In this document: positions 28,883 through 47,064 of the stretch, piece by piece
How the letters are laid out: the number at the start of each line of letters is the position of its first letter
Numbering within the stretch: the first letter of the stretch is position 1
NCBI RefSeq assembly: GCF_058153355.1
Contig: NZ_CM177019.1
Strand: one strand, 5' to 3'
Length of the DNA stretch: 64,000 bases
Notes under the pieces: generated by a model
The model's input: only the letters and a program-made list of their open reading frames with translations
Told to the model about the DNA's origin: nothing
Database searches by the model: none
Position numbers and translations under genes: made by a program

Positions 28883-30711
<1,829 letters not shown>

Positions 30712-43450: not shown

Positions 43451-43987
43451 TCAGAACGGAATGTCGTCATCAAAGTCCATCGGCGGCTCGTTAGACGGCG
43501 CTGCCGGAGCGGACTGCTGCGGGCGAGACTGCGCGCCGCCGCTGAACTGATTGCCGCCCTGCGGCTGCTGAGGCTGACCCCAACCGCCCTGCGGCTGACC
43601 ACCACCGATATTGCCACCTGCAGGAGCGCCACCACCCTGACGACCACCCAGCATCTGCATGGTGCCGCCAACGTTCACCACGACTTCTGTGGTGTAGCGA
43701 TCCTGACCGGATTGATCGGTCCATTTGCGGGTACGCAGCTGACCTTCGATATAAACCTGAGAACCTTTACGCAGATATTCGCTGGCTACTTCTGCCAGTT
43801 TGCCGAACAGCACAACGCGGTGCCATTCAGTCTGCTCTTTCATCTCGCCGGTCGCTTTATCACGCCAGGATTCGGAAGTAGCCAGCGTAATGTTGGCAAC
43901 TGCGCCACCATTTGGCATGTAGCGTACTTCCGGGTCCTGACCCAGATTACCAACGAGAATAACCTTGTTTACGCCTCTGCTGGCCAT
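43451..43987 (-). CDS. ssb: Single-stranded DNA-binding protein SSB
   Basis: 178-aa ORF: OB-fold N-terminus, Gly/Gln/Pro-rich linker, acidic C-terminal tail DFDDDIPF. Confidence 0.97.
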
Positions 43988-44140
43988 GTTCGTGTCTCCT
44001 GAAAAAAAATCGTTCTGAATAAGTGTAAACGCGCGATTGTACCATTACCAATAGCGCTTTTACTATGTTGTGACCTCGGTTCAGGGAAACAAACCTGGCC
44101 AGACATTGTTACACAACACTCCGGGTAATGCATTCCAATA

Positions 44141-44156
44141 CTGTATATTCATTCAG
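44141..44156. promoter_or_regulatory. LexA (SOS) box in the divergent ssb-uvrA promoter region
   Basis: CTGTATATTCATTCAG matches the CTGT-N8-ACAG SOS box, about 85 nt upstream of the uvrA ATG. Confidence 0.8.
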
Positions 44157-44241
44157 GTCAATTTGTGTCATAATTAACCGTTTGTGATCGCCGGTAGCAC
44201 CATGCCACCGGGCAAAAAAGCGTTTAATCCGGGAAAGGTGA

Positions 44242-47064
44242 ATGGATAAGATCGAAGTTCGGGGCGCCCGCACCCATAATCTCAAAAACATCAACCTCGT
44301 TATCCCCCGCGACAAGCTCATTGTCGTGACCGGGCTTTCGGGTTCTGGCAAATCCTCGCTCGCTTTCGACACCTTATATGCCGAAGGGCAGCGCCGTTAC
44401 GTTGAATCCCTTTCCGCCTACGCGCGGCAGTTTCTGTCACTGATGGAAAAGCCGGACGTCGATCATATTGAGGGGCTTTCTCCTGCCATCTCGATTGAGC
44501 AGAAATCGACGTCTCATAACCCGCGTTCTACGGTGGGGACAATCACCGAAATCCACGACTATTTGCGTTTGTTGTTCGCCCGCGTCGGTGAGCCGCGCTG
44601 CCCGGACCACGATGTACCGCTGGCGGCGCAAACCGTCAGCCAGATGGTGGATAACGTGCTGTCGCAGCCGGAAGGTAAACGCCTGATGCTGCTCGCGCCA
44701 ATCATTAAAGAGCGCAAAGGCGAACACACCAAAACGCTGGAAAATCTGGCAAGCCAGGGTTACATCCGTGCTCGTATTGATGGCGAAGTCTGCGATCTTT
44801 CCGATCCGCCGAAACTGGAATTGCAAAAGAAACACACCATTGAAGTGGTGGTTGATCGCTTCAAGGTGCGTGACGATCTTACCCAACGTCTTGCCGAGTC
44901 GTTTGAAACCGCGCTGGAGCTTTCCGGTGGTACAGCGGTGGTTGCTGATATGGACGATCCAAAAGCGGAAGAGCTGCTTTTCTCAGCGAACTTCGCTTGT
45001 CCAATTTGCGGCTACAGTATGCGTGAACTGGAGCCGCGACTGTTTTCGTTTAACAACCCGGCGGGGGCCTGCCCGACCTGTGACGGCCTTGGCGTACAGC
45101 AATATTTCGATCCTGATCGCGTGATCCAAAACCCGGAACTGTCGCTGGCTGGCGGTGCGATCCGAGGCTGGGATCGCCGCAACTTCTATTATTTCCAGAT
45201 GCTGAAATCGCTGGCAGATCACTATAAGTTCGACGTCGAAGCGCCGTGGGGCAGCCTGAGCGCGAACGTGCATAAAGTGGTGCTGTACGGTTCAGGCAAA
45301 GAAAACATTGAATTCAAATACATGAACGATCGCGGCGATACCTCCATTCGTCGTCATCCGTTCGAAGGCGTGCTGCACAATATGGAGCGCCGTTATAAAG
45401 AGACGGAATCCAGTGCGGTACGCGAAGAATTAGCCAAGTTTATCAGCAATCGCCCGTGCGCCAGCTGCGAAGGAACGCGTCTGCGTCGGGAAGCGCGCCA
45501 TGTGTATGTCGAGAATACGCCGCTGCCTGCTATCTCCGACATGAGCATCGGTCATGCGATGGAATTCTTCAACAATCTCAAACTCGCAGGTCAACGAGCG
45601 AAGATTGCGGAAAAAATTCTTAAGGAGATTGGCGATCGCCTGAAATTCCTCGTTAACGTCGGCCTGAATTACCTGACACTTTCCCGCTCGGCAGAAACGC
45701 TTTCTGGCGGTGAAGCCCAGCGTATCCGTCTGGCGAGCCAGATTGGTGCGGGCCTGGTTGGCGTGATGTACGTGCTGGATGAGCCGTCTATCGGCCTGCA
45801 CCAGCGCGATAACGAGCGTCTGTTGGGTACGCTTATCCATCTGCGCGATCTTGGTAATACCGTGATTGTGGTGGAGCACGACGAAGACGCGATTCGTGCG
45901 GCTGACCATGTGATCGACATCGGTCCTGGTGCGGGTGTACATGGCGGTGAAGTGGTCGCGGAAGGTCCCCTGGAAGCGATTATGGCGGTGCCTGAGTCGT
46001 TAACCGGGCAGTACATGAGCGGCAAACGCAAGATTGAAGTGCCAAAGAAACGCGTTCCGGCGAATCCGGAAAAAGTGCTGAAGCTGACCGGCGCACGTGG
46101 CAACAACCTCAAAGACGTGACGCTGACGCTGCCGGTGGGTCTGTTTACCTGCATCACAGGGGTTTCAGGTTCCGGTAAATCGACGCTGATTAACGACACA
46201 CTGTTCCCGATTGCCCAACGCCAGTTGAATGGTGCGACCATCGCCGAACCGGCACCTTATCGCGATATTCAGGGGCTGGAGCATTTCGATAAAGTGATCG
46301 ATATCGACCAAAGCCCAATTGGTCGTACTCCGCGTTCTAACCCGGCGACCTATACCGGCGTGTTTACGCCTGTGCGCGAACTGTTTGCGGGCGTACCGGA
46401 ATCCCGTGCGCGCGGTTATACACCAGGACGATTCAGCTTTAACGTTCGCGGCGGACGCTGCGAAGCCTGTCAGGGCGATGGCGTGATCAAAGTGGAGATG
46501 CACTTCCTGCCGGACATTTACGTACCGTGCGACCAGTGCAAAGGTAAACGCTATAACCGTGAAACGCTGGAGATTAAGTACAAAGGCAAAACCATCCACG
46601 AAGTGCTGGATATGACCATCGAAGAGGCGCGTGAGTTCTTTGATGCGGTACCAGCTCTGGCACGTAAGCTGCAAACATTGATGGACGTTGGCCTGACGTA
46701 CATTCGCCTGGGGCAGTCCGCAACCACACTTTCTGGTGGTGAAGCCCAGCGCGTGAAGCTGGCGCGTGAGCTGTCAAAACGCGGCACCGGGCAGACACTG
46801 TATATTCTCGACGAGCCGACCACCGGTCTGCACTTCGCCGATATTCAGCAACTGCTCGACGTATTGCATAAACTGCGCGATCAGGGCAATACCATCGTGG
46901 TGATTGAGCACAATCTCGACGTGATCAAAACCGCTGACTGGATTGTCGACCTGGGGCCGGAAGGCGGCAGTGGCGGCGGCGAGATCCTCGTCTCCGGTAC
47001 ACCAGAAACCGTCGCGGAGTGCGAAGCTTCGCATACGGCGCGCTTCCTCAAGCCGATGCTGTAA
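44242..47064 (+). CDS. uvrA: Excinuclease ABC subunit UvrA
   Basis: 940-aa ORF with two ABC ATPase modules (GLSGSGKSS and GVSGSGKST Walker A; two LSGGEAQR signatures) and zinc-finger Cys clusters. Confidence 0.97.

Follow-up and report, generated by a model that had tools for sequence, protein, structure and literature searches.

The window analysed here, a stretch of 64 kb of DNA, carries ssb and uvrA as divergently oriented neighbours that are separated by an intergenic gap of 254 bp (43988-44241). A 1-kb query across ssb-uvrA matched 5,425 of the 5,426 complete Escherichia coli genomes, with a best identity of 99.6% and an identity of 99.0% to K-12, and it is the matching records that provide the gene names in the table below. 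The gap is bounded by the ssb ATG at 43987 (minus strand) and the uvrA start at 44242, in agreement with the 254-bp divergent region described in the initial annotation, and a ribosome-binding site for ssb, AGGAG, is read on the minus strand at 44000-43996. Within the gap lies the LexA box CTGTATATTCATTCAG, which had been placed at about 44141-44156; a direct read of the window puts it at exactly these positions, with the CTG at 44141-44143 and the CAG at 44154-44156. The box is located 152-171 nt upstream of ssb, its far edge being 171 nt from the ssb ATG.

Table 1. Genes, operators and promoter elements of the ssb-uvrA and lexA regions (positions within the window)
Feature	Position	Strand	Remarks
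ssb CDS, 178 aa	43451..43987	-	ORF list; named ssb1 in matching E. coli records (RefSeq)
Candidate proximal constitutive ssb promoter, TTGGTA-18-TACACT	44022..44051	-	9.42 bits, best of its strand; predicted start near 44015
Candidate constitutive ssb promoter, extended -10 TGG-TACAAT (TGGTACAAT)	44036..44044	-	8.53 bits; predicted start near 44029
Candidate distal LexA-controlled ssb promoter "P1", TTGACC-18-TGGAAT	44132..44161	-	8.17 bits; predicted
LexA operator (SOS box), 20-mer TACTGTATATTCATTCAGGT	44139..44158	.	Core CTG-N10-CAG at 44141-44156
Predicted uvrA promoter, extended -10 TGT-CATAAT (TGTCATAAT)	44166..44174	+	Sigma-70 matrix scan, conservation
uvrA CDS, 940 aa	44242..47064	+	ORF list; named uvrA in matching E. 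coli records (RefSeq)
Putative lexA, 202-aa ORF	59636..60244	-	LexA-like translation; about 16 kb from the box
Two tandem LexA operators of lexA	60251-60270, 60272-60291	.	18.56 and 19.23 bits, pattern matches; directly upstream of the lexA start

The box was evaluated with a LexA matrix of 20 nt, for which 21 E. coli sites known from the literature were assembled and the uvrA/ssb and lexA sites deliberately excluded. In a scan of the whole window the 20-mer spanning the box ranked first, at 19.75 bits, and this value falls within the range of 13.0-27.8 bits covered by the training sites (21 sites, the box excluded), a range that is approximate. Our own approximation of the heterology index, which takes the box in the ssb orientation, is 6.97 versus a published value of 6.98 (PMC9505508). 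The box is also single, as had been claimed: no second LexA site was found in the 254-bp gap, where the runner-up matrix score is only 3.75 bits, and the sole other comparable matrix matches in the window are the two operators that precede lexA (60251-60291). A weak LexA-like sequence, TATTGTTTTTCACGACAGTA, is present at 30363-30382 in the gap between nrfA and acs, where it precedes nrfA by about 45-65 nt; it was rejected as a LexA site, as the CTG of its left arm is missing and its score of 12.7 bits is at the level of chance, the mean best score of simulated sequences being 12.07 bits.

A palindrome of this kind might arise by chance in AT-rich intergenic DNA and have no regulatory role, and the minimal pattern CTGT-N9-CAG is indeed no commoner in the window than expected, with 8 matches versus 5.4; this count, which is not significant alone, was left out of the evidence. 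However, the full-length score of the box was reached in none of 200 simulated 64-kb sequences (first-order Markov; mean maximum 12.07 bits). The consensus 16-mer CTGTATATATATACAG, when up to three mismatches are allowed, matches the window three times versus 0.09 expected, a number that none of 100 shuffles attained; the box itself differs from this consensus at three positions. Moreover, hardly any E. coli genome departs from this site, the 20-mer being unchanged in at least 5,406 of 5,426 records, and its fixed spacing to a -10 element has been kept across several orders, as detailed below. In the literature, too, it is through this SOS box that LexA is taken to act on uvrA and ssb (PMC9505508). 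A fortuitous origin of the box is therefore exceedingly improbable.

The window encodes the cognate repressor as well, and the operators of lexA serve as internal positive controls. The names lexA and dinF are those that we take to be correct from our own reading of the translation and from the K-12 gene order, the position of dinF after lexA being occupied by an ORF of 459 aa (58238-59617). The two operators upstream of lexA and the box between ssb and uvrA belong to the same motif class and have similar scores (18.6 and 19.2 versus 19.75 bits), all three deviating moderately from the consensus. They differ in their arrangement: at lexA two tandem boxes act on one promoter in autoregulation, whereas in the ssb-uvrA gap one box is associated with two divergent promoters.

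A stock promoter and terminator scan of positions 43900-44330 found nothing, its thresholds being too strict for non-consensus promoters; all of the promoters proposed for the gap therefore deviate from the consensus. A matrix-based sigma-70 scan was substituted for it. On the uvrA strand this position-weight scan, which included a bonus for an extended -10 element, placed the -10 hexamer CATAAT at 44169-44174, with the TG at 44166-44167, and the transcription start is predicted near 44181. Only weak -35 matches accompany the uvrA promoter, and the LexA box encloses the stretch where they fall (about 44146-44153). With respect to the predicted start the centre of the box is at approximately -32.5, and the box spans approximately -42 to -23; the distance from the end of the box to the conserved extended -10 element TGTCATAAT is 12 nt. 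An overlap of the SOS box with the -35 element of uvrA has been reported previously (PMC9505508), and the predicted geometry agrees with that report and supports the view that the operator overlaps the core promoter elements of uvrA. A potential hairpin in the presumptive uvrA leader (CCGGTAGC...GCCACCGG, about 44191-44211) was also considered and was rejected, as it folds no better than shuffled sequences (z = -0.19).

On the opposite strand of the gap exactly three candidate promoters score at least 8 bits with the sigma-70 matrix; elsewhere in the window the frequency of such candidates is about 0.55 per kb per strand. The most distal of the three has a -35 hexamer TTGACC at 44161-44156, a spacer of 18 nt, a -10 hexamer TGGAAT at 44137-44132 that is without the usual A at position 2, and a predicted start near 44125. 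The LexA 20-mer occupies the spacer of this candidate and 3 nt of its -35 hexamer. In this geometry the box both covers the presumed -35 region of uvrA and sits in the spacer of the distal ssb candidate, with the two predicted starts about 56 bp apart, back to back, and one LexA dimer between them. The two other candidates are closer to ssb, and in one of them the block GATTGTA.CATTAC, which corresponds to the candidate constitutive promoter with the extended -10 element, is conserved in Escherichia, Citrobacter, and Enterobacter. According to PMC9505508, ssb has three promoters, and LexA controls only the most distal of these. The combination TTGACC-18-TGGAAT is a candidate for this LexA-controlled promoter and fits that description, the assignment of the hexamers being a prediction. 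For a shared operator one would look for promoters on both strands; the evidence is good on the uvrA side, and the ssb side consists of an 8.17-bit prediction together with a statement from a secondary source (PMC9505508).

Conservation beyond E. coli was examined by pattern searches over loci and by alignments, using a genome scan with one genome per species in which the first 200 residues of UvrA served as the query and which returned 80 gammaproteobacterial loci. About 22 of the 80 loci have the pattern CTG-N10-CAG in the interval of 30-130 nt ahead of the uvrA start, where approximately 2 would be expected by chance (100 positions × 1/4096 × 80). Enterobacterales, Vibrio, Aeromonas, and Pasteurellaceae contribute 15 loci, of which 14 have the box in this interval; in the fifteenth, that of Photorhabdus cinerea, it is displaced to -207 by an insertion of 129 nt in the uvrA leader (positions 1343-1471 of that locus, L008) with imperfect inverted ends of 28 nt. 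This insertion separates the uvrA promoter from the start codon, and P. caribbeanensis lacks it; the core of the insertion (GTGAATCCCCGGGAGC...GACCGGGGTGAGCG) resembles the consensus of an ERIC-type miniature repeat. None of the 11 loci from Pseudomonas and Stutzerimonas has a box in this interval upstream of uvrA, and the uvrA gene of Pseudomonas is not known to be regulated by LexA.

Alignment of the gaps from Enterobacterales showed that their most conserved part is the box together with the downstream block TGTG(T/C)(C/A)ATAAT, and when Pasteurellaceae and Aeromonas are considered along with Enterobacterales, no other block of the gap is as well conserved as the box plus the extended -10 element. 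A common layout is shared by 24 box-anchored sequences, in which the box is followed by 12-14 nt and then by TGn and the -10 hexamer. The extended -10 element takes the form TGn(C/A/G)ATAAT in Enterobacterales and Pasteurellaceae, the individual variants being TGTCATAAT, TGCCATAAT or TGTAATAAT in the former and TGCGATAAT in the latter, and it appears as TGCCATACT in Aeromonas. Among the related Enterobacteriaceae of the sample one or two positions of the box differ, and the -35 hexamer TTGACC of the distal ssb candidate is partly conserved in Enterobacterales.

In Enterobacterales, Pasteurellaceae, and a small number of further lineages, a conserved SSB motif marks a divergent ssb gene that adjoins uvrA. 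In Vibrio hepatarius the upstream neighbour of uvrA is galU-like and has the orientation of uvrA, and in Aeromonas caviae a gene for a LuxR-type regulator intervenes, on the same strand; the regions concerned are 491-1433 of locus L009 and 749-1446 of locus L010, and both species have kept the box. The box is therefore primarily the operator of uvrA. From the sampled sequences it can be stated that the box follows uvrA and is common to ssb only where ssb is the divergent neighbour, sharing of the operator being lineage-specific.

These observations lend themselves to another interpretation, namely that the box serves uvrA alone, that 152-171 nt is too far for it to affect ssb meaningfully, and that ssb is effectively outside of the SOS regulon. 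Retention of the box next to galU in Vibrio and next to the LuxR-type regulator gene in Aeromonas, where a divergent ssb is not adjacent, is what one would expect of a box that is ancestral to uvrA, and the two best candidate promoters of ssb are near the gene and far from the box. Expression data can be cited on the same side. In response to AZT, uvrA was up 3.9-fold with a LexA dependence of 4.4-fold, and the corresponding values for ssb were 1.5-fold and 1.0-fold (PMC11228462). Several transcriptome studies failed to record an effect of LexA on ssb (PMC11228462, and studies reviewed in PMC9505508), and earlier work with microarrays and immunoassays was likewise negative with regard to SOS induction of ssb (reviewed in PMC9505508). 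Nevertheless, LexA-dependent induction of ssb has been observed by RT-qPCR, and the gene is overexpressed in an SOS-constitutive mutant (PMC9505508). After exposure to ciprofloxacin the maximum log2 change was 3.2 for uvrA and as much as 1.8 for ssb (PMC11002266). In Salmonella both genes are among the SOS loci and share one ssb-uvrA box with an index of 6.99, and the SOS table lists similar values for them, 9.63 for ssb and 11.16 for uvrA, which are read here as fold induction (PMC8072944). Moreover, the ssb strand has the promoter-like sequence TTGACC-18-TGGAAT on either side of the box, and its TTGACC is partly conserved in spite of being located in the otherwise unconstrained spacer of the uvrA promoter. 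Taken together, a role restricted to uvrA seems unlikely. The initial annotation had proposed that one operator can regulate uvrA and potentially an ssb promoter, and this proposal is supported, including the word "potentially", which is a fair hedge because the induction of ssb is weak and inconsistently detected (PMC11228462, PMC11002266).

We are thus highly confident that the box is the classical SOS operator that uvrA and ssb, as divergent neighbours, have in common in E. coli. This interpretation builds on a site that is statistically significant, conserved, and the only one of its kind in the gap, and on where it stands relative to the conserved promoter-like elements; LexA dependence and the induction ratios come from the literature on the identical K-12 sequence, and the exact starts and the hexamers of P1 are predictions. 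In undamaged cells a dimer of LexA (encoded at 59636-60244) would bind the imperfect palindrome at 44139-44158 and keep RNA polymerase off the uvrA promoter, leaving uvrA at a moderate basal level. Such exclusion would be effective because the uvrA promoter has a poor -35 element and relies on the extended -10 element TGTCATAAT. The same dimer would fill the spacer of the distal ssb candidate (44161-44132), which fires in the opposite direction. Upon DNA damage, RecA assembled on single-stranded DNA would promote the self-cleavage of LexA, and both promoters would be freed. Expression of uvrA would be predicted to rise several-fold and that of ssb only slightly, the latter because most ssb transcription would originate from the two LexA-independent promoters nearer to the gene. 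Since the site is only a moderate match to the consensus, repression would be incomplete and both genes would have substantial basal expression (PMC9505508, PMC11002266).

The arrangement can be compared with those of known systems. One SOS box with a heterology index of 6.98 is common to uvrA and ssb in E. coli K-12 (PMC9505508), and the 20-mer, the entire sequence from the box to the uvrA start, and the flanking genes are identical in K-12 and the window; on the ssb side the published position in K-12 is about -170 nt (PMC9505508) and the distance in the window is 171 nt. Salmonella enterica, although a different genus and compared here by description, has divergent ssb and uvrA genes with one common box as in the window. 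A more remote case is provided by the alphaproteobacterium Sinorhizobium meliloti, in which the LexA motif differs in being a direct repeat of the type GTTC-N7-GTTC. Divergent promoters of the same uvrA-ssb pair in that species are the subject of Tapias and Barbe (1999), which is cited in PMC2248561.

The observation is confirmed and its interpretation supported, and what lies in the gap is the textbook SOS box of uvrA and ssb, which is already known. Descriptions of this operator go back to the early 1980s, and lists of the SOS regulon of E. coli invariably include it. It has little weight as a discovery and is chiefly a positive control, with the lexA operators in the window available for calibration. 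The extent of LexA control over the essential ssb gene, and the promoter through which it is exerted, are still debated in recent papers. A search of the supplement of a genome-wide study of start sites gave no entry for ssb, uvrA, b4058, or b4059.

Variation within E. coli may bear on the ssb side of this arrangement. Of the E. coli records, 4,700 match the window exactly over a segment of 30 nt that includes the box (44134-44163), and 706 more differ from it solely by a C to T change at 44159, one base outside of the 20-mer, which makes this a common polymorphism. The window carries the C, and the T allele turns the -35 hexamer of candidate P1 from TTGACC into TTAACC. If TTGACC is the real -35 element of P1, lineages would differ in how much of their ssb transcription is SOS-inducible, and it is conceivable, though rather doubtful, that this polymorphism may tune the coupling of ssb to the SOS response while control of uvrA stays intact. 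One rare variant among those sampled is changed at 44139 and 44157 and has an intact CTG-N10-CAG core.

The gap of K-12 MG1655 differs from that of the window at two places, which are located between the box and ssb: a run of seven A residues versus eight in the window, and a C versus an A in the window at 44083. The A at 44083 is rare, as nearly all E. coli have the C of K-12 and an exact match to 44064-44124 was found in 7 of 5,413 records; the position sits between the candidate distal and proximal promoters of ssb. The A-run (44003-44010) belongs to the ssb leader, where on the ssb strand it immediately precedes the ribosome-binding site, and from the aligned sequences it is a length-variable homopolymer, with eight residues in the window and in GN06098 and seven in K-12 and Z1322HEC0010. 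The rare A at 44083 and the run of eight in the ssb leader could have further strain-specific effects.
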